Below, piece by piece: positions 8,481 to 50,135 of a stretch of 50,135 nt of DNA (positions within the stretch are counted from its first letter, which is position 1; the number at the start of each line of letters is the position of its first letter). The translations under genes were made by a program, and so were the position numbers. This DNA is from Christensenellales bacterium (GTDB taxonomy: Bacteria; Bacillota; Clostridia; Christensenellales; CAG-138): NCBI GenBank assembly GCA_045224495.1, contig JBGVAK010000071.1, positions 1-50,135 on the forward strand. The letters are read 5' to 3'. The notes beneath the pieces are model-generated. The model saw nothing but the letters and a program-made list of their open reading frames with translations, ran no database searches and was not told where the DNA came from.

Positions 8481-9485
8481 ATGGAAACGAAACTGCTGCA
8501 AATCAAGGATCTGCGGATCGAATTTCACAGCGACGGCGAAGTCACATACGCCGTCAACGGAGTCGACCTGGAGATCGAAGAAGGAAAGACCCTGGGGCTG
8601 GTCGGAGAGACCGGCGCAGGAAAGACGACGACGGCTCTTTCCGTTCTGGGCATGGTCCCCAAACCCGCAGGCAAGGTCCGCTCCGGTGAAGTGCTGCTCA
8701 ACGGCGTCGATATCCTCAAACAAAGCGAAAAGCATCTGGAGGACATCCGCGGCAATCAGGTCGCCATGATCTTCCAGGACCCCATGACAGCACTGAATCC
8801 TGTCATGACGGTGGGCAAGCAGATCGCGGAGGCGATCATCGTCCATGAACATATCGGCAAGGGGGAAGCCATGGAGCGCGCCCGCGCCATGTTGGAAACG
8901 GTCGGTATCCCGGGGGAGCGGGCCAATGAATATCCGCACCAGTTCAGCGGCGGCATGAAACAGCGCGTGGTCATCGCCATGGCCCTTGCCTGCAAGCCGA
9001 AGCTCCTGCTGGCGGACGAACCGACCACCGCGTTGGACGTGACGATCCAGGCCCAGGTGTTGGAGTTGATGCGGAACCTCCGCAAACAGTTCAGCACGGG
9101 CATGCTGATGATCACCCATGATTTCGGCATCGTGGCCGAGGTCTGCGATTCTGTCGCCGTCATGTACGCCGGCAAGATCGTGGAGAGCGGCACTCTGGAA
9201 GACGTGTTCGATCACAAGCGTCATCCCTATACCGAAGGTCTGTTCAACTCCCTGCCCGACGTATCCGACAGAAAGAGCGAGCTCAAGCCCATTCGCGGCC
9301 TGATGCCGGATCCCACGAACCTGCCCACCGGCTGCCCCTTCCATCCGCGCTGCGACTATTGCATGGATTGCTGCTCCCAGCAGGAGCCGCCTAAGGTTTG
9401 GATCAACGATACCCATTATACTCGTTGCTGGCTATATCAGAACACCACGGAAAACCAACTTCACAGCAAGGAGGTGGCTCCATGA
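8481..9485 (+). CDS. Oligo/dipeptide ABC ATP-binding protein (DppD-like)
   Basis: Walker A GETGAGKT, signature FSGGMKQR, Walker [13 protein letters not shown], and a C-terminal oligopeptide-type Cys cluster. Confidence 0.92.
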
Positions 9486-42911: not shown

Positions 42912-43119
42912 CTGACAGATGAACGTTCCGGAGGAGATCCTGTGTCCGCCTGCCGTTTCCGTAAAAGAGGATAGCCAAAATCTTCACAAAAGACAGCGAA
43001 TCATCCGACAGGTAAGCGAATGGTCTAACTTCATTGAAAGCGGAAAGCAAGTACAATACGATCAAGAGGAAGGGAATGACTCCTCAATACACACAGAAAT
43101 ATTAGATCAGGAGGATACT

Positions 43120-44901
43120 ATGAAGAAGATTTTTGCTCTGCTGCTCGTGGCTGCCATGCTGTTCAGCCTCGCCGCGTGCACCCAGTCCGCTGCGCCCGCC
43201 TCCGAAGCCCCTAAGGCCGAGGAGCCCGCGAAGGCCACCGAAGCCCCCAAAGCCGAAGAGCCGAAAGCTGCTGAAGTCCCTGCCGCTGCAGAACCCGCGT
43301 ATACGGACGGCGTCTGGATGTGCTCCAGCGATGCGACCCATTTTGTCCTTCTCAAACTGAAGGAGGACGGCACCTTCTACGCCCGCGGCCTCATGGGCCA
43401 GCAGGGTTTCTTCGGCAAGTACGAGGTGGTGGATATGGCCGTCGAGTATTACGATGCCAAGGCGGACGGCGTTCTCAAGCAGGAGGATATGCCCTTTGAC
43501 GTGCTGAAGTCCGAAAAGGCTGTGAAGTTCATGCACGAGGACGGCACGCCCTACGAAGTTCGTCAGGAGCCCGCTTCCGTAAAGATCGACGGCAATCCAA
43601 CGCCCATCGACGCCATCAACGACGGCCTCGGCAAGGAGTATGTGGCGCTGGCCGGCGAGATGCTCCATCACGTGGCTTTCGACGATTACAGCCGTTCCCT
43701 GACCCACAAGCCCAATGAGAAGTTCTCCGAAGCCGACGAGATCCGGAACCTCCTCTACAAGTTCATGGTGGCTGAAGTCTCCGAGAAGAACGCCGCCGAG
43801 GGCTGGAAGCAGCAGGAACTGACGTTGGAGCTGTATCACAACGGCTATGTGGATATGGCGACCGGCGATGAGCTGGTGGACGAGTCCTATCAGAAGATCG
43901 AGGGCAACGTCTATACCCTGGCCGACGGTGCCACCGTCACCGTGGACCCCGATGCCTACACCGCCGTTTACCAGAAGGGCGATGTGAAGATCGACTTCGT
44001 GAAATTCAATGAGAACGGCTCCGAGGCTGCCGCCGCTGTCAAGGCCCAGTATGAGGGCGAAGCCTTCAGCGGCAAGGTCAAGCTGGTGGCCAAGATGTTC
44101 GACGACGGCACCATCGTGATCTACGGCAACGACAAGGAGCTCTCCAAGGGCACCTATGAAGGCGCCGGCCTCCCCACCATCACCCTGGACAAGGGCACCG
44201 CCAAGATCAAGGCCACCTCCGCCACCGACGTGAAATTGATTTTCACCGCCGATCTTGGCAACGGCTCCGAAGCCGACTACGAGTTGGCTAAGGTGGAAGT
44301 CACCGCCGAAGCCCCCGCTGCCCCCGCCGTGGTCGCTCGCTATGAAGGGGAAGCCTTCAGCGGCGCCGTGAAGCTGGTCGCTGAGATGTATGACGACAAC
44401 TCCATCGTCATCTGCGGCAACGACAAGGAACTGACCCGCGGCACCTACGAGGGCCAGGGTCTGCCCAAGATCACCCTGGACAAGGGTACGGCCGAAATCA
44501 AAGCCACCTCTGCCACCGACGTGAAGCTGGTCTACACCGCGGATTTGGGCAACGGCAAGGAAGACAGCTATGAGCTTCCCAAGGTGGAGATCGTCGCCGA
44601 GACCCCGGCCGCTGCGCCCGCTGTGGTCGCCCGGTATGAAGGAGAAGCCTTTGGCGGCGCGGTGAAGCTCTTCGCCGAGATGTATGACGACAACACCATC
44701 GTCATCTGCGCCAACAAGGGCGGCGAGGACGTGGAGCTGGCTCGCGGCACCTACGAGGGCCAGGGCCTGCCCACCATCTCCCTGAACAAGGGCACTGCCG
44801 AAATCAAGGCCACCTCCGCCACCGACGTGAACCTGGTCTTCAACGCGGACATCGGCACCGGCTCCGCTGCCGATTACATTCTGGCCAAGGTGAACAACTG
44901 A
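43120..44901 (+). CDS. Lipoprotein with an Ala/Pro/Glu/Lys linker and three C-terminal tandem repeats
   Basis: ORF 42919.. trimmed to ATG 43120 after AGGAGGA. Lipobox MKKIFALLLVAAMLFSLAAC. No family recognised. Confidence 0.85.
   Translation: MKKIFALLLVAAMLFSLAACTQSAAPASEAPKAEEPAKATEAPKAEEPKAAEVPAAAEPAYTDGVWMCSSDATHFVLLKLKEDGTFYARGLMGQQGFFGKYEVVDMAVEYYDAKADGVLKQEDMPFDVLKSEKAVKFMHEDGTPYEVRQEPASVKIDGNPTPIDAINDGLGKEYVALAGEMLHHVAFDDYSRSLTHKPNEKFSEADEIRNLLYKFMVAEVSEKNAAEGWKQQELTLELYHNGYVDMATGDELVDESYQKIEGNVYTLADGATVTVDPDAYTAVYQKGDVKIDFVKFNENGSEAAAAVKAQYEGEAFSGKVKLVAKMFDDGTIVIYGNDKELSKGTYEGAGLPTITLDKGTAKIKATSATDVKLIFTADLGNGSEADYELAKVEVTAEAPAAPAVVARYEGEAFSGAVKLVAEMYDDNSIVICGNDKELTRGTYEGQGLPKITLDKGTAEIKATSATDVKLVYTADLGNGKEDSYELPKVEIVAETPAAAPAVVARYEGEAFGGAVKLFAEMYDDNTIVICANKGGEDVELARGTYEGQGLPTISLNKGTAEIKATSATDVNLVFNADIGTGSAADYILAKVNN
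44050..44898 (+). repeat. Three in-frame tandem repeats of about 97 aa (291/294 nt)
   Basis: Units start at 44050, 44341 and 44635. Each reads YEGEAF(S/G)G.VKL.A.M(F/Y)DD..IVI.....EL..GTYEG.GLP.I.L.KGTA.IKATSATDV.L....D.G.G....Y.L.KV. Confidence 0.9.
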
Positions 44902-45094
44902 ACGGACCATACGACGTAATCCCAAACGATTTACCGGCCGGGGCGCTCTACTCCACAGACAATAGACGCCCCGCCTGAAAAAAAGGAGGAAAGACCGGCA
45001 TCTCCCGGTGCGGCAGTGTGGAGACCTGTCGTAATGCAGAGTGACATCTGCGAGGACGCCCCTTGCGGAGGCAGAGCGTTCAGAGACAAGCAAA

Positions 45095-46273
45095 ATGGCA
45101 ACCGTACAACTCAAGAACATCAAGAAGGTCTACCCCTACATCAGCGGCGAACAGAAGAAGTCCAAGAAGAAGGAAGACCAGCCGGAAAAGAAGAAAGTCA
45201 ACCTGCAGATCACCGATGAGGGCGTCGTCGCCGTCCAGCAGTTCAGCCTGGACATCGCCGACAAGGAGTTCATCGTCCTCGTCGGCCCCTCCGGCTGCGG
45301 CAAGTCCACCACGTTGCGCATGGTCGCCGGCCTCGAGGAGATCACCGACGGCGAGCTCTTGATCGACGGCAAGCTGGTGAACGACATCCCGCCCAAGGAC
45401 CGGGATATCGCCATGGTCTTCCAGAACTACGCTCTGTACCCCCACATGACCGTGTACGAGAACATGGCCTTCTCTCTGAAGCTCCGCCATGTGCCCAAGG
45501 CCGAGATCGACAAGAAGGTGAAGGAAGCAGCGGAGATCCTCGACATCACCCAGTATCTGAACCGGAAGCCCAAGGCCCTGTCCGGCGGCCAGCGGCAGCG
45601 TGTGGCCATCGGCCGCGCCATCGTCCGGGCCCCCAAGGTCATGCTCATGGACGAGCCTCTTTCCAACCTGGACGCCAAGCTCCGCAACGAGATGCGGGCC
45701 GAGATCATCAAGCTCCGCAAGCGCATCGACACCACCTTCATCTACGTGACCCACGACCAGACCGAGGCCATGACCTTGGGCGATCGGATCGTCATCATGA
45801 AGGACGGCTATATCCAGCAGATCGGCACCCCCCAGGAGGTATTCAACCATCCCGCGAACCTGTTCGTGGCCGGATTCATCGGCATGCCGGTGATGAACTT
45901 CTTCGACGCGAAGCTGGTCCGCGAAGGCAGCAAGTACTTCGTGGAGGTAGGCGGCTATCGCCAGGAGCTCTCCCCCGAGAAGGAGGAGCGCCTTTACAAC
46001 AAGGACGTCCAGAGCCAGGACATCACCCTGGGCGTGCGTCCGGAGCACACGGACGTGGCGGACGAGGGCGTGGAGGCCCGGGTGGACGTGGCCGAGATGA
46101 TGGGTTCCTCTGTCCATCTGCACGTGAACGCCGAGGGCCGGGACGTGATCATCATCGTGCCCACCACGGACATGAAGGGGAACTACGAGATGGGCGACAC
46201 GGTCCGCTTCTCCTTCCAGGGCAACGTAGCCCACGTCTTCTCCAAGGAAAACGATCGGAATTTGGAGTTCTGA
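45095..46273 (+). CDS. MsmX/MsmK/UgpC-type sugar ABC ATP-binding protein
   Basis: Trimmed to ATG 45095. Walker A GPSGCGKST, signature LSGGQRQR, Walker B LMDEPLSNLD, and a Lys-rich insert SGEQKKSKKKEDQPEKKKVN near the N-terminus. Confidence 0.9.
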   Translation: MATVQLKNIKKVYPYISGEQKKSKKKEDQPEKKKVNLQITDEGVVAVQQFSLDIADKEFIVLVGPSGCGKSTTLRMVAGLEEITDGELLIDGKLVNDIPPKDRDIAMVFQNYALYPHMTVYENMAFSLKLRHVPKAEIDKKVKEAAEILDITQYLNRKPKALSGGQRQRVAIGRAIVRAPKVMLMDEPLSNLDAKLRNEMRAEIIKLRKRIDTTFIYVTHDQTEAMTLGDRIVIMKDGYIQQIGTPQEVFNHPANLFVAGFIGMPVMNFFDAKLVREGSKYFVEVGGYRQELSPEKEERLYNKDVQSQDITLGVRPEHTDVADEGVEARVDVAEMMGSSVHLHVNAEGRDVIIIVPTTDMKGNYEMGDTVRFSFQGNVAHVFSKENDRNLEF

Positions 46274-46374: not shown

Positions 46375-47218
46375 TGGCTCTTCAACAAAAAGTGTGGAAT
46401 GGTCTTCTGACAGAAGGCAGAGACAGATATTTGATCAAGGTGAAAAAGTAGTCGTCGTTGCGGAACCCGTAACCGATACGCTTGGCAACCTTGATCTTGT
46501 TATTGAACCCTTCCAGCTTGCCGGTGCTGATCGGATAAACAGCGTGGGAGATCAAACCTTCCAACCGCTTTTCCTTCAGCTCCGCGAATTTGACCAGCTG
46601 CGGGATATGGCTCGCTTTCGCGGCGTTGAACCAGGCAGTCCATCTCTCTTCAGCGATATCCGGATCGTCCAGCTCAAACAATTCGGACATCTCTTCCTTC
46701 ATTGCATAACATAAAGCCAGGCTGCTGTGATCCGACAGGATCTGTTTCAAAGATTCGGCCTTGCTGCCCTTCAGCTTCCGTCCGGACATCAGCAGATTCC
46801 ACCGGCTGGACTTGATCGCGGAATATGTATGAAGTTCCTCTCTGGCGGCTGCTTTGGTCTCTTTCCTCTTCGCAGGGTCTGCCTCCCGGAGAAGAGCGTC
46901 CTGATACTCGTGTGACCGCGCCTGATGCGCCTTTGCTTCCTCCAGCCTGACGGAACCAAGAACATCCTTCCCGAACTGCGCCTGCATATGGTATCTGTCG
47001 TACACGATCCTTGCCTGCGGCAGATGTTTTTCGACCAATATATGGTAGGACGCATTCATATCCATGGCGATTGCCTTTACTTCTGAAAGAAGGGAAAGGT
47101 CATATTCCTCAAAGAACTTTCGAAAATGCAGAGTATAATCTCTAAATCGAGGGAAGAATTGTCGCATGACATGCGACCTCCTTTGTTCGTGCTCTGCTAT
47201 ACTATGACCATCAACCAA
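46375..47218 (-). mobile_element. ISL3-family insertion sequence remnant (right end plus DDE part only)
   Basis: The transposase C-terminus is present and GGCTCTTCAACAAAAAGTGTGG at 46375 looks like a terminal inverted repeat. No N-terminal half or left end is found in the window. Confidence 0.6.
46382..47167 (-). pseudogene. ISL3 transposase, C-terminal fragment
   Basis: AMDMNASYH, IVYDRYHM and TGKLEGFNNKIKVAKRIGYGFRNDDYF are DDE_Tnp_ISL3 blocks. The zf/HTH N-terminus and the first catalytic Asp region are missing. ATG 47167 is preceded by AAGGAGG. Confidence 0.7.
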
Positions 47219-47232
47219 GCAAGGAGGTTACC

Positions 47233-47889
47233 ATGAGGACCATTCGAGTAAAAGGTAAAGGACAAATTCGCGTTAAGCCTGACGAGACCCGGATCACCCT
47301 GTCGTTGGAGGGGCTCTATCCCGAATATGGCGAGACCCTTCGCCGGTCCGCGGAGGATACGGAAAAGATCAAGGATCTCCTGACGGGGTTGGGGTTTGCG
47401 CGGACAGACCTGAAGACCCTGAACTTCAACGTGGACACGGAGTACGAGAGCTATCAGGTGAAGAACACCTATAAGCAGCGCTTCGTGGGTTACAAGTACC
47501 ACCATCAGATGAAATTGGAGTTCGATTCCGACAACCATCGGCTGGGGAAGGTGCTCTACGCTCTGGCCAATTGCCCGCTGCAGCCGGAGTTTCGCCTGAG
47601 CTACACGGTGAAGGACCCGGAAGCCGCCAAGAACGAGCTGCTGGGCAAAGCGGTGGCGGACGCCCAGGCGAAAGCCCAGACTCTGACCCAAGCAGCGGGC
47701 GTCACACTGAAGGACATCCAAAGCATCGACTATTCCTGGGCCCAGGTCAACTTTGAGGTCGAACCCATGAGCCGGATGCTCATGAGGTCGGACTGCGCCG
47801 CCAAGGGCGTCGACAGCTACGACATAGACATCGAACCTGACGACATCCAGGTTTCCGATACCGTGGCGATCCTGTGGGAAATCGGCTAA
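47233..47889 (+). CDS. SIMPL (DUF541) domain protein
   Basis: 218 aa. The start IRVKGKGQIRVKPDETRITLSL and the segment KNELLGKAVADAQAKAQTLTQAAGVTLKDI match the SIMPL pattern. No signal peptide seen. Confidence 0.75.
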   Translation: MRTIRVKGKGQIRVKPDETRITLSLEGLYPEYGETLRRSAEDTEKIKDLLTGLGFARTDLKTLNFNVDTEYESYQVKNTYKQRFVGYKYHHQMKLEFDSDNHRLGKVLYALANCPLQPEFRLSYTVKDPEAAKNELLGKAVADAQAKAQTLTQAAGVTLKDIQSIDYSWAQVNFEVEPMSRMLMRSDCAAKGVDSYDIDIEPDDIQVSDTVAILWEIG

Positions 47890-48186
47890 GTTGACACCTT
47901 CCCTCACAAAATGAGCTCAGCTTCAATCGGTGTCATTTTATCATCAGTTGCGCATGCCCGGATTATTCGGCTAAACATTTGCACACTTTTTTCAGCAGTC
48001 CTCTGAAAAAGAGCAATAAAAAGCGGAACGGGGTGCATATTGTACCCTGCTTCGTTTATAGTAAAGTTTTGTGAAAACACTGCCTCTGGCATGCTGATTG
48101 GCCTTTGTTCTCGGCAGATATTTGTTCTTATCAAAGATTGGCCGAAAAATGATTGACCGTCATGATGTAATTGAAAACATAATACA

Positions 48187-49143
48187 TTAATTCTGTATGG
48201 TATCTTTGATTATTGACTCTGCAAAATCTTTTGCCCCTGATAACAATTTGTGACAAAGCGCTTTTTTGTTCTGCTCATTCTGCGTAGAAGTAAACATACT
48301 TTTGTTACGTTTGAAGACGCCATTCACCTTGTCATAATCTGCTGGCACTTCAAATACATTTACCAAAAGATAAATGACATCATCTACAGTGAACCACTCG
48401 CCTTTATTCTCGTTAGTCACAATGTACATCGCCATGATGACCTGCTCCTTTGCGCCTGAGAGTGATTTTACTGCAGGGTAGTTTCCCACATTGAGGTCAT
48501 CAGCAGTTACAGAAGCATAAGCAGAAGGCGCTTTGTTTGTAGCCTTCCGTGTCTTCGTATGGGGTTTCTTGTCTGTATTATTCTCTTTCGGTTTATAATC
48601 CTTAATATAGGCTATACCAGCATCTGTCAACATATAGTACTTACCCGCTTTTGCACCTTCTGGCGGTTTAGTGTCCATTATATGACCTTTTTCAACAAGT
48701 CTGTATAATGACACACTTGGATTTTTAGGGGGTGTTCGCCTTGCCTCGGAATAATATCTTTTTACATCATCAATAAAGAACTCTTTCATCCCGTTTTTCA
48801 TTTCGTCAAAATAGGCAGCAAACAAAGTAAAATCCAGTTCAGATAGCGCCCCATACTGTTTCAAAAAGGCGGACAAATTGGTGCGAGAAAGATCATTTTC
48901 CGGTGAAGGTACAATCGTTTCCAGCTTCGACTCTTCACCCGCTTCAAGCATTGGTGCTTGAGATGCAGTTCCAATAAAATCTGACTGTACAGACGCTGTC
49001 TGCGTCCGAACCATTGCCTCAACAGCAGCGGGAAGAACGGCGTTCATGAAGTTTACACGCTGCTGCTCAACGACATCAGCTGGCCCCTCAGCTTTAAATT
49101 CAATAGCCCCAACCTTATATTCCAGTTTCAAAGTATCCTTCAT
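48187..49143 (-). CDS. Hypothetical protein (318 aa) with two similar winged-helix-like modules joined by a Lys/Thr-rich linker
   Basis: AT-rich ORF starting 12 nt after the upstream gene, with AGGAGGAATAATA preceding ATG 49143. No family recognised. Confidence 0.8.
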   Translation of the reverse strand: MKDTLKLEYKVGAIEFKAEGPADVVEQQRVNFMNAVLPAAVEAMVRTQTASVQSDFIGTASQAPMLEAGEESKLETIVPSPENDLSRTNLSAFLKQYGALSELDFTLFAAYFDEMKNGMKEFFIDDVKRYYSEARRTPPKNPSVSLYRLVEKGHIMDTKPPEGAKAGKYYMLTDAGIAYIKDYKPKENNTDKKPHTKTRKATNKAPSAYASVTADDLNVGNYPAVKSLSGAKEQVIMAMYIVTNENKGEWFTVDDVIYLLVNVFEVPADYDKVNGVFKRNKSMFTSTQNEQNKKALCHKLLSGAKDFAESIIKDTIQN

Positions 49144-49155
49144 TATTATTCCTCC

Positions 49156-49893
49156 TTACATTAAACCTGCACGGTTATATAGGTCTTCCAACATAACCCG
49201 ATACTCTCGGGCTATTCTATCAATATCAAGCTTCCCGGCAGTATAGGTTATCGAATGAGCTGAATAGTTCCCTACATCACGAAAAGCATCAAAGTTATTA
49301 GAGATTCTCGAAGGAATCCCCAAACTGGGGTTTTGACGTGCATCCTTAACGATTCCTTCAAGCATTTTGTGTGTTCCATCAGGTCTTGTTATGGCTGCTT
49401 CTACACCCTTGTTTTGATAAGTCAAAACGAGCAGCACTTCAAACAGTCGCCGCATAAGAACAGCACATGCATCGTAGCAGTTTTGCCCATAGCAGTGATT
49501 AATCTGATGAACTAACTTATCCAAATAGGGTTGTTTTCCGCAGAACTTTACTTCTTCTAACAACTCGTTATTTGATTCAATAGTTACCGTATCTTGCCAC
49601 AGTTGCCCGTATTCACGATCCAATGCCTGCAGCACTGCCGGTACAAATTCGAGTGCGTTCTTATCAGTTTTTGAGAAACAAAACGCTTTTCCCTTACCCT
49701 TTGTGAGATTGGTTTTCAATCTAGAAGTGTTCGGTTTACTGAAATTACACTCTTCCATCCAGGTTGCAATACTGGATACTTTGAACGCAACATCTCCCTC
49801 CTCCTTATAGTGAAAATAACACAGCATCTTCGCACGATCGACTTCAAGCATTTCTTTAAGTTCAGTAGTTTCCATATATTCTAATAGTTTCAT
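49156..49893 (-). CDS. Hypothetical protein (245 aa) with a DUF4145-like C-terminal domain
   Basis: Trimmed to ATG 49893 after GAGGGGTGA. The C-terminus CYDACAVLMRRLFEVLLVL...MLEGIVKDA...FDAFRDVGNYSAHS resembles the DUF4145 pattern as I recall it. AT-rich. Confidence 0.8.
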   Translation of the reverse strand: MKLLEYMETTELKEMLEVDRAKMLCYFHYKEEGDVAFKVSSIATWMEECNFSKPNTSRLKTNLTKGKGKAFCFSKTDKNALEFVPAVLQALDREYGQLWQDTVTIESNNELLEEVKFCGKQPYLDKLVHQINHCYGQNCYDACAVLMRRLFEVLLVLTYQNKGVEAAITRPDGTHKMLEGIVKDARQNPSLGIPSRISNNFDAFRDVGNYSAHSITYTAGKLDIDRIAREYRVMLEDLYNRAGLM

Positions 49894-49912
49894 CGAATCA
49901 CCCCTCATCTAA

Positions 49913-50135
49913 TTACCCTATCACTAATTTGTTCGTCTTCTTCAGATACTTCGCCGGGATCGGTTGATCGAGGCGCCAGGTGATGTTCATGGGGCGGGAG
50001 CCGTCGTGCTTCACATAAGTGGCCGTGCCCAGGAAGGTGTAGGCTGCTGCGCCGCCGGAAAGGCGATCCGATTTGAATTCGCGGACGAACAGGAGGACGC
50101 GGCTGCCGCGCTCCTGATGGTGGATGTACCGTTGA
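49913..50135 (-). CDS. C-terminal end of a DUF3427-domain protein, probably a helicase/nuclease fusion (5' part is beyond the window)
   Basis: Manual translation: ...QRYIHHQERGSRVLLFVREFKSDRLSGGAAAYTFLGTATYVKHDGSRPMNITWRLDQPIPAKYLKKTNKLVIG-TAA. The LFVR...YxFLG...G.KPM.I.W.L..PIP pattern typifies DUF3427 C-termini. High G+C. Confidence 0.6.
   Translation of the reverse strand, partial: QRYIHHQERGSRVLLFVREFKSDRLSGGAAAYTFLGTATYVKHDGSRPMNITWRLDQPIPAKYLKKTNKLVIG

Follow-up and report, generated by a model that had tools for sequence, protein, structure and literature searches.

A mobile gene pair encoding a predicted HEPN ribonuclease and a tandem winged-helix protein, often found behind restriction operons

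What are two AT-rich genes doing directly behind a restriction-type gene, and do they belong to that gene at all? The question is raised by a 50,135-nucleotide (nt) stretch of a Christensenellales genome (contig JBGVAK010000071.1 of assembly GCA_045224495.1; hereafter the window), in which gene 1 (49156..49893, minus strand) and gene 2 (48187..49143, minus strand), open reading frames (ORFs) of 245 and 318 amino acids (aa), follow the 3' end of a DUF3427 gene. An initial annotation of this DNA had proposed either an accessory or specificity module of the DUF3427 helicase-type protein or an independent two-gene system. The second proposal stands: the two genes form a unit of their own, occur strictly together and probably represent an undescribed back-up anti-phage module, in which gene 1 joins a winged helix to a HEPN domain of the DUF4145 family and gene 2, which has no Pfam family, carries two further winged helices.

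A HEPN protein and its winged-helix partner

The two genes lie on the same strand 12 nt apart, as first described, and the spacer between them (49144..49155, minus strand) contains GGAGG, which indicates that their translation is coupled, as judged from this sequence. A 19-nt spacer 5' of gene 1 (49894..49912, minus strand) holds the ribosome-binding site (RBS) AGGGGTGA. An alternative in-frame ATG at 49908 would yield a 250-aa product; we place the start at 49893 because of this RBS and because nearly all homologues are 245 aa long.

The resemblance of the C-terminus of gene 1 to DUF4145 is borne out by the Pfam profile (PF13643), which matches aa 145-223 with 27.1 bits against a cut-off of 23.1, and many of the homologues carry a precomputed PF13643 annotation. 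In the AlphaFold2 model (predicted confidence score, pLDDT, 80.8), an N-terminal winged-helix-like domain is joined by a linker of low confidence to a C-terminal domain made up entirely of helices, which span aa 121-241. On the combined evidence of Pfam, AlphaFold2 and Foldseek, the HEPN (DUF4145) domain, a predicted ribonuclease (RNase), occupies aa 121-245 (49159..49533, minus strand). Its best Foldseek match is the HEPN protein 2hsb (target TM-score 0.71, probability 1.0), and 2q00 (0.73), the HEPN toxins 7bxo_G and 7ae8, and Csm6 are also matched. The N-terminal ~90 residues, initially taken as unknown, turn out to belong to a predicted winged helix of about 100 residues (aa 1-100; 49594..49893, minus strand), with the secondary-structure order H-H-E-H-H-E-E-H in the AlphaFold2 model and weak MarR-type matches in Foldseek.

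The predicted catalytic motif of this HEPN domain, R-x3-N-x3-H (RDVGNYSAH, codons 205-213; 49255..49281, minus strand), emerged from an alignment of 30 gene 1 sequences, in which R205, G208, N209, A212 and H213 are invariant at identities down to ~49%. The Arg-His spacing of seven residues, compared with four to six in the canonical HEPN motif, had been read as a misfit. This objection falls away, since Anantharaman et al. (2013, PMC3710099) assigned DUF4145 itself to the HEPN superfamily and noted its fusion to restriction enzymes or its presence in their operons, and since R146 and H154 of the abortive-infection RNase RAZR (PD-T7-4) have the same spacing; alanine at either position abolishes defence, and purified RAZR cleaves single-stranded RNA when combined with the phage trigger (PMC13017515). 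In gene 1 the family profile, the Arg...His motif on a single helix and the all-alpha fold agree. The invariance of the motif argues for an active RNase, and we infer such an activity for gene 1.

Gene 2 matches no family in Pfam, NCBIfam, PADLOC-DB v2.0.0 or PHROGs, as the initial annotation had anticipated; its sole Pfam signal is PadR (E=0.024, 15.1 bits), below the cut-off of 27. For gene 1, PHROGs gave weak matches only, with a 'DNA binding protein' phrog across the DUF4145 part. NCBIfam and profile searches against PDB sequences returned nothing for either gene.

The AlphaFold2 model of gene 2 (mean pLDDT 73.7) is more telling. Residues 1-48 (49000..49143, minus strand), the beta-rich segment of the first description, form a beta-hairpin (4-21) and a long helix (22-49). 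This is the best-conserved part of the protein (68% mean pairwise identity, with the invariant columns concentrated there) and a candidate contact with gene 1. A disordered acidic linker (aa 49-82) leads to a first MarR-like winged helix at aa 86-183 (48595..48888, minus strand; modelled over ~90-181 with pLDDT 83-91, domain isoelectric point 8.75), for which Foldseek returns BpsR, MarR, MepR and PefR with probability 1.0. The Lys/Thr-rich linker described at the outset is indeed there, as a basic disordered stretch at aa 184-212 (48508..48594, minus strand; pLDDT below 50 over 187-205, isoelectric point 10.2), and it is followed by a second winged helix at aa 213-318 (48190..48507, minus strand; modelled over ~231-317, pLDDT 82-92). 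The fold is of the MarR/SarA type, and Foldseek also matches SarS, itself a tandem winged-helix protein.

The two modules of gene 2 had been proposed to share a sequence pattern. They do agree as winged helices, and the sequence repeat is not significant (hhalign E=0.11), so that a duplication may be proposed from the models, with support at the fold level only. Comparing the winged helix of gene 1 with the first one of gene 2 gives E=0.008. The hhalign probabilities are very low in both comparisons, and the repeat and a paralogy of these winged helices are suggestive at best. Gene 2 is not a member of the MarR/PadR regulators, given the sub-threshold PadR score, the two winged helices per chain and the extra N-terminal domain. 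Nor is it a Rep_3 iteron initiator: there is no Pfam match, no occurrence in 72,556 plasmids, and no RepE or RepA among the Foldseek matches.

Across the cassette, conservation is highest in the HEPN domain (72% mean pairwise identity). The winged helices (54-58%) vary more than this domain and the N-terminus of gene 2, and aa 1-100, at 54%, are the more variable half of gene 1.

Pairing, mobility and genomic company

To see whether the two genes belong together, we followed both through other genomes. Gene 1 has 646 homologues, and the best 120 share at least 59% identity and, with few exceptions, a length of 245 aa; the 234 homologues of gene 2 carry no Pfam domains, and the best 120 of them are again at least 59% identical. 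Many contigs are common to the two lists. An exhaustive profile search with gene 2 gave 398 clusters at 50% identity, and among the best 150 of these all proteins are at most 325 aa long and none is a fusion. All 29 distinct homologous pairs are adjacent (29/29, with gaps of -4 to +34 nt), and gene 1 stands immediately 5' of gene 2 in all complete loci, whichever gene serves as query. This strict pairing, which matches no PADLOC model and no description in the literature searched, upholds the two-gene system of the initial annotation. Clustering of neighbours across loci found no conserved gene apart from gene 1 and gene 2. Candidates for a third general component were rejected: a zinc-ribbon ORF, DUF3800 and a 271-aa ORF as locus-limited, and a recurring TnpV-DUF6809-HTH_17 trio as part of the carrier element. 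The zinc-ribbon ORF (85 aa, CPLCG...CSDCK) lies 3' of gene 2 in L011 (5988-6245) and L020 (10634-10786) only. In L046 gene 2 is followed by a 271-aa gene resembling DUF3800/PDC-M04A, and in L048 by an unannotated ORF of equal length.

The cassette is widely distributed. The 24 loci from GTDB genomes belong to Bacillota (Oscillospiraceae, Lachnospiraceae, Peptococcaceae, Virgibacillus and Listeria), Spirochaetota and Synergistota, and one cassette-bearing element is labelled Sutterella. The cassette is common in gut Bacillota and bears at least four phylum-level labels in all. Homologues in different phyla share 60-85% identity, and at every locus the pair is AT-rich (31-43% G+C) and usually poorer in G+C than the DNA on either side. 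Integrative mobilisable elements, equipped with relaxase, recombinase and TnpV genes, account for many of its carriers. The TnpV-DUF6809-HTH_17 trio recurs on the opposite strand downstream of gene 2 (L036, L037, L039-42, L048) and is found upstream in L026; it marks a shared mobile-element family that carries the cassette.

How the pair moves has left some traces. The DNA common to homologous loci amounts to ~15-20 nt upstream, including the RBS, and to none downstream, so that no transposon-like ends were found. In L007, a remnant of an HsdS 3' end (~9160-9248) lies upstream of gene 1 and is homologous to the HsdS-gene 1 junction of L002, L032 and L036; standing beside an intact type IIG gene, it is the footprint of a cassette that moved with a piece of its former operon. 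Three loci are decayed and keep 3' fragments of gene 2 without gene 1: L020 (10001-10615), behind an Avs5 (SIR2-STAND) gene; L022 (10001-10339), after an unrelated ORF; and L023 (9967-10252), interrupted by an IS5/IS1182-like transposase. We found no match to the cassette in 50,697 phage records, 72,556 plasmids or IMG/VR contigs, and prophage-structural and plasmid-Rep readings are therefore rejected.

The company that the pair keeps is equally informative. There are about 19 independent contexts, of which several numbered loci (L) may share one. In 10 of these ~19, the pair stands on the same strand directly behind a restriction-modification or Dnd operon; the distance to the upstream same-strand gene is mostly 11-130 nt, and 628 nt in L007. 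The upstream systems are a type I HsdR-M-S operon (L002, L032-38, L046-47), a second type I arrangement followed by a 358-aa gene (L039-42, L048), DndBCDE (L003, L049-51), type III Mod/Res (L004), a 1359-aa type IIG enzyme (L007), Dcm+DUF4928+Vsr (L008), Dcm+Eco47II (L015), a methyltransferase with a PstI-type restriction endonuclease (L018) and, at the window's locus, a type IV SauUSI-like enzyme. The pair is thus not specific to DUF3427: it follows type I, II, IIG, III, Dnd, AbiLi-like and housekeeping genes, and a DUF3427 gene is directly upstream at the window's own locus only (the SauUSI-like gene of L002 is downstream, after a type I system).

In two loci, L011 (2825-4264) and L017 (2603-3976), an AbiLi-like ABC ATPase gene (PADLOC 1e-63 to 1e-65) overlaps gene 1 by 4 nt. 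In the AbiL system this ATPase works with AbiLii, and the HEPN pair stands in the position of that partner, in the effector slot, so that these loci may represent a three-gene variant. The arrangement in the window is unlike that of L011 and L017, and neither gene 1 nor gene 2 is related to AbiLii. Farther upstream, L017 also has a PDC-S41 Schlafen-type helicase. Other genes are wedged between the upstream operon and gene 1: the 358-aa gene that follows the restriction operon (L039 6123-7199, L048 5123-6199) and a 111-aa gene after the Dnd operon (L049 6640-6975). Neither has a Pfam or PADLOC match; they may be further embedded defence candidates.

Elsewhere the pair is found next to guaA (L005/L013, L010, L012), smpB (L014), rlmH with a ParA-like gene (L019) or an IS3 element (L053-55), and in unannotated islands (L043-44, L052). 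The guaA, smpB/ssrA and rlmH genes are hotspots of island integration. Avs5, PDC-S41, a retron-type reverse transcriptase and AEP-TOTE are among the other neighbours.

The island around the cassette in the window

The gene upstream of the cassette is represented in the window by its 3' end (49913..50135, minus strand), that is, by the last 73 codons and a TAA stop at 49915-49913, 19 nt before gene 1, and continues beyond it. The 73-codon fragment matches Pfam DUF3427 with 30.6 bits and PADLOC mREase_IV at 7e-15. In the metagenome contigs L026 and L027, which have an identical gene 1, the gene is seen in full, and the presumed fusion to helicase and PLD nuclease domains proves correct: PLDc_2/RE_NgoFVII, ResIII/Helicase_C and DUF3427 follow one another, the PLD nuclease, SF2 helicase and DUF3427 composition of a SauUSI-like type IV enzyme. 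The gene is one continuous ORF of at least 874 aa in L027 (2-2626) versus a 281-aa PLD ORF and a 716-aa helicase-DUF3427 ORF in L026 (6834-9981), a split that may reflect pseudogenisation or phase variation. Besides the window, five metagenome contigs of this locus have the same arrangement of cassette and DUF3427 gene. The contig L001 is the window's locus with only 255 additional bases, and a minus-strand gene call upstream of its cassette was rejected as an artefact.

[quoted passage not shown] With these and the SauUSI-like gene, the setting of the cassette in the window is a defence island, as had been supposed. On the other side come a SIMPL/DUF541 gene (47233-47889, plus strand) and, adjoining it, a truncated ISL3-family transposase (46382-47218, minus strand; 278 aa, profile positions 40-239 of 240), which accounts for the insertion-sequence remnant of the initial annotation. 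In other samples of the locus TnpV, not ISL3, comes after SIMPL.

Composition sets the cassette apart from these neighbours. The break in G+C that had been noticed is real and sharp, and the by-eye estimate of 35-40% was slightly low: G+C is 41.2% over 48187-49908, 57.7% in the DUF3427 fragment and 58.2% in the remaining window. The drop sets in with the 19-nt spacer, exactly at the stop codon of the DUF3427 gene, so the cassette joined a gene that was already there. At the other end, the low-G+C block runs on as an AT-rich 3' tail of the inserted segment (47900..48186, minus strand) and ends near 47900. This tail has no conservation in other loci and contains a 76-aa ORF (47904-48134) without Pfam or PHROG match. 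Repeats in the window are at chance level, and no inverted repeats or att-like sites were found around the cassette. A search of the minus strand from 47700 to 50135 gave no site resembling a terminator or a promoter, in line with the first reading of a 19-nt gap free of a terminator, and co-transcription with the DUF3427 gene is therefore likely in this genome.

The window holds several features of other kinds. A malK-I RNA motif (Rfam RF03069, 124.6 bits; 44932-45100, plus strand) lies directly upstream of a MalK-like ABC ATPase ORF (45041-46273) and overlaps its annotated start, and a ZMP/ZTP riboswitch (RF01750, 56.6 bits) lies at 910-994 on the minus strand. A 660-aa lipoprotein-like ORF (42919-44901, plus strand) has an Ala/Pro/Glu/Lys-rich linker and three tandem repeats of ~100 aa with the pattern YEGEAFSG.VKL.A.M.DD..IVI.GNDKEL..GTYEG.GLP.I.L.KGTA.IKATSATDV.L...ADLGNG...

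What the pair may do

Given what is established about the cassette, namely how its genes are built, which domains they encode, the invariance of the motif, the strict pairing, the mobility and the bias in context, we lean somewhat towards a mobile HEPN RNase with its own regulator or sensor, abortive-infection-like in action and appended to defence operons. Gene 2 would be produced stoichiometrically with gene 1 and bind it, keeping the RNase inactive, and would sense an infection cue through the more variable winged-helix domains. On that cue the HEPN domain would cut cellular RNA (tRNA, rRNA or mRNA) and the infected cell would stop growing, in the manner of abortive infection. The module has been captured repeatedly at the 3' end of defence operons, where it is probably read through from operon promoters and would back up DNA-level immunity as a second line of defence. 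The strict and coupled pairing, the conserved HEPN domain and gene 2 N-terminus, and the variable winged helices fit an effector held by a sensing partner. We infer a physical complex of the two proteins, an inhibitor or sensor role of gene 2 and an anti-phage phenotype.

This proposal has precedents. HEPN back-up suicide effectors beside BREX and restriction-like systems are an accepted paradigm of comparative genomics, and DUF4145 defence proteins include the BREX-associated BxaP (PMC10799925) and the anti-plasmid Ishtar (bioRxiv 2026.07.06.735840). Like gene 1, these proteins and the DUF4145 domains of the Anantharaman survey combine DUF4145 with a defence-operon neighbourhood and a predicted or shown abortive or back-up role. 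They differ in being single proteins or fusions to restriction endonuclease, helicase, HEAT or beta-rich C-terminal domains, and none has the two-gene architecture of winged helix-DUF4145 plus tandem winged-helix protein. RAZR is another DUF4145 effector, with R-x7-H spacing, a small N-terminal recognition domain and wide horizontal spread. However, RAZR has a Cys4 zinc finger at its N-terminus, acts alone and is activated by assembling around phage ring proteins, whereas gene 1 has a winged helix in place of the zinc finger and an obligatory 318-aa partner. We therefore do not assign gene 1 to RAZR/PD-T7-4: no zinc finger is predicted, a second gene is present, and PADLOC gives no PD-T7-4 match.

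A solved parallel for the division of labour is the retron type IX pair, whose winged-helix (WH / KH-HTH) protein wraps around the catalytic site of the HEPN RNase and is displaced only when a phage nuclease intervenes (bioRxiv 2026.07.14.738597 and 2026.07.14.737667). Here too a two-protein unit has a winged-helix partner silencing a HEPN RNase, and the output is tRNA and rRNA cleavage and growth arrest. The differences are in the parts. The retron requires a reverse transcriptase and multicopy single-stranded DNA (msDNA), and its HEPN protein lacks the canonical motif (H64/R122). Its partner is built from two alpha-beta-beta-alpha-beta domains and one helix-turn-helix, whereas gene 2 has a beta-hairpin and two MarR-like winged helices. 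The retron pair is thus an analogue of the cassette, not a detectable homologue. The cassette is no type IX retron: no reverse transcriptase is among its conserved neighbours, and no retron RNA appeared in an Rfam scan of the window. The RVT_1 gene of L049, oppositely oriented and ~2 kb away from the pair, does not recur. No description of the pair was found in literature mentioning DUF4145, in a guilt-by-embedding study or in PADLOC v2.

Several observations count against an RNase defence module, and we take them together. The Foldseek E-values are weak (0.12-1.9 for the HEPN matches, the best being 0.12, and 2e-3 for the winged helix). In PADLOC-DB v2.0.0 gene 1 has no model match beyond a weak Csx1 (E=0.02), and gene 2, as noted, has none. 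About seven of the ~19 contexts have no recognisable defence operon ahead of the pair, so that restriction genes are preferred but not obligatory neighbours. Finally, residence in defence islands is in itself no proof of immunity, and toxin-antitoxin addiction fits most of the data.

If the preference for restriction operons is taken literally, the module could be a guard that monitors the DNA-level immunity encoded upstream and fires when a phage disables it. Such a design exists in PrrC and RloC, HEPN-type RNases encoded in or beside restriction operons that act as a back-up once restriction is defeated. They carry an ABC-ATPase N-terminal domain and have no separate winged-helix partner, and PrrC is physically held by EcoprrI. 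Gene 1 does not belong with them: it has no P-loop or ABC match in Pfam or PADLOC and begins with a 100-aa winged helix, and the pair stands behind many restriction types and also occurs without them. By analogy with PrrC, EcoprrI and Stp, and with PARIS, which senses Ocr, DNA mimics of the Ocr/ArdA kind might titrate the winged helices of gene 2 and free the HEPN RNase. The frequent position directly behind many restriction-modification and Dnd types at operon-like spacing, the three winged-helix domains of DNA-binding type in the pair and their greater variability compared with the effector domain all speak for this. Against it, the upstream partners are mechanistically unrelated (type II, type IV, Dnd, AbiLi-like ATPase), so that one shared trigger is hard to imagine; roughly a third of the contexts have no adjacent restriction system, and no evidence points to physical coupling with restriction proteins. 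We consider a guard of this kind unlikely. A more general form, in our view a long shot, is a universal tripwire, in which the winged helices of gene 2 would serve as DNA decoys or as sensors of anti-restriction factors or of restriction-made DNA ends, and release the HEPN RNase. If true, it would explain the grafting behind types I, II, IIG, III and IV, Dnd and AbiLi-like ATPases alike, and the cassette would be a portable PrrC-like guard compatible with any restriction system.

Could the pair instead be a selfish toxin-antitoxin module, with gene 1 as HEPN RNase toxin and gene 2 as winged-helix antitoxin or autorepressor, which stabilises the islands and mobilisable elements that carry it and has no dedicated immune role? 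It is bicistronic, apparently translationally coupled, mobile, AT-rich and borne on integrative mobilisable elements, the decayed L020, L022 and L023 retain a gene 2 fragment and have lost gene 1, and HEPN toxins are common among toxin-antitoxin systems. The HEPN-MNT modules (type II/VII), from which the Foldseek matches 7bxo_G and 7ae8 come, likewise consist of a HEPN RNase toxin and a co-transcribed neutralising partner. That partner, however, is a minimal nucleotidyltransferase that AMPylates the toxin, whereas searches of Pfam, NCBIfam and PADLOC reveal no such enzyme in gene 2, which is predicted to fold as a tandem winged helix, and this sets the cassette outside this class. The toxin-first order and the sizes of 245 and 318 aa are also atypical of type II systems, and most loci leave no room for an autoregulated promoter, the pair standing 11-22 nt behind the upstream gene or overlapping it. 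The pair is found in none of 72,556 plasmids, where addiction modules abound, its placement bias toward restriction operons goes unexplained, and the pattern of remnants is biased, gene 2 having been the search query. An addiction role without immunity thus seems to us improbable.

Far less survives of a third proposal, that the two proteins are transcriptional regulators of defence operons and that the HEPN domain is non-catalytic, serving to bind a ligand or to dimerise. The three MarR-like winged helices, the weak PadR match and the existence of regulators in restriction-modification and defence islands, such as RptR, would suit it. Yet the R/N/H catalytic residues are invariant throughout the family, the pair sits at the 3' end and not near the promoter, and the upstream operons, unrelated and without DNA in common, offer no shared operator. 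RptR itself, a small promoter-proximal repressor of Gammaproteobacteria, is unrelated and was rejected as a model. We hold this regulatory role to be very unlikely. Weakest of all, an accessory or specificity module of the DUF3427 restriction enzyme, suggested by the 19-nt spacing and its recurrence in the five further contigs of the locus, is scarcely tenable and largely refuted by the distribution of the pair, since a single locus type has DUF3427 upstream, L002 has its SauUSI-like gene downstream and the others have none, and the G+C break falls exactly at the DUF3427 stop codon.

We thus return to the HEPN RNase held by its winged-helix partner. If confirmed, it would enlarge the known repertoire by a compact two-gene RNase defence module that has spread widely by transfer, and it would give a function to the Pfam-less gene 2 family with its 398 clusters. 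The design of winged helix-HEPN protein plus tandem winged-helix partner would offer a reverse-transcriptase-free comparison to retron type IX, and the cassette, grafted again and again behind nearly all classes of restriction or modification operon, would provide a clean system in which to follow how DNA-level immunity is coupled with an abortive back-up at the level of RNA.

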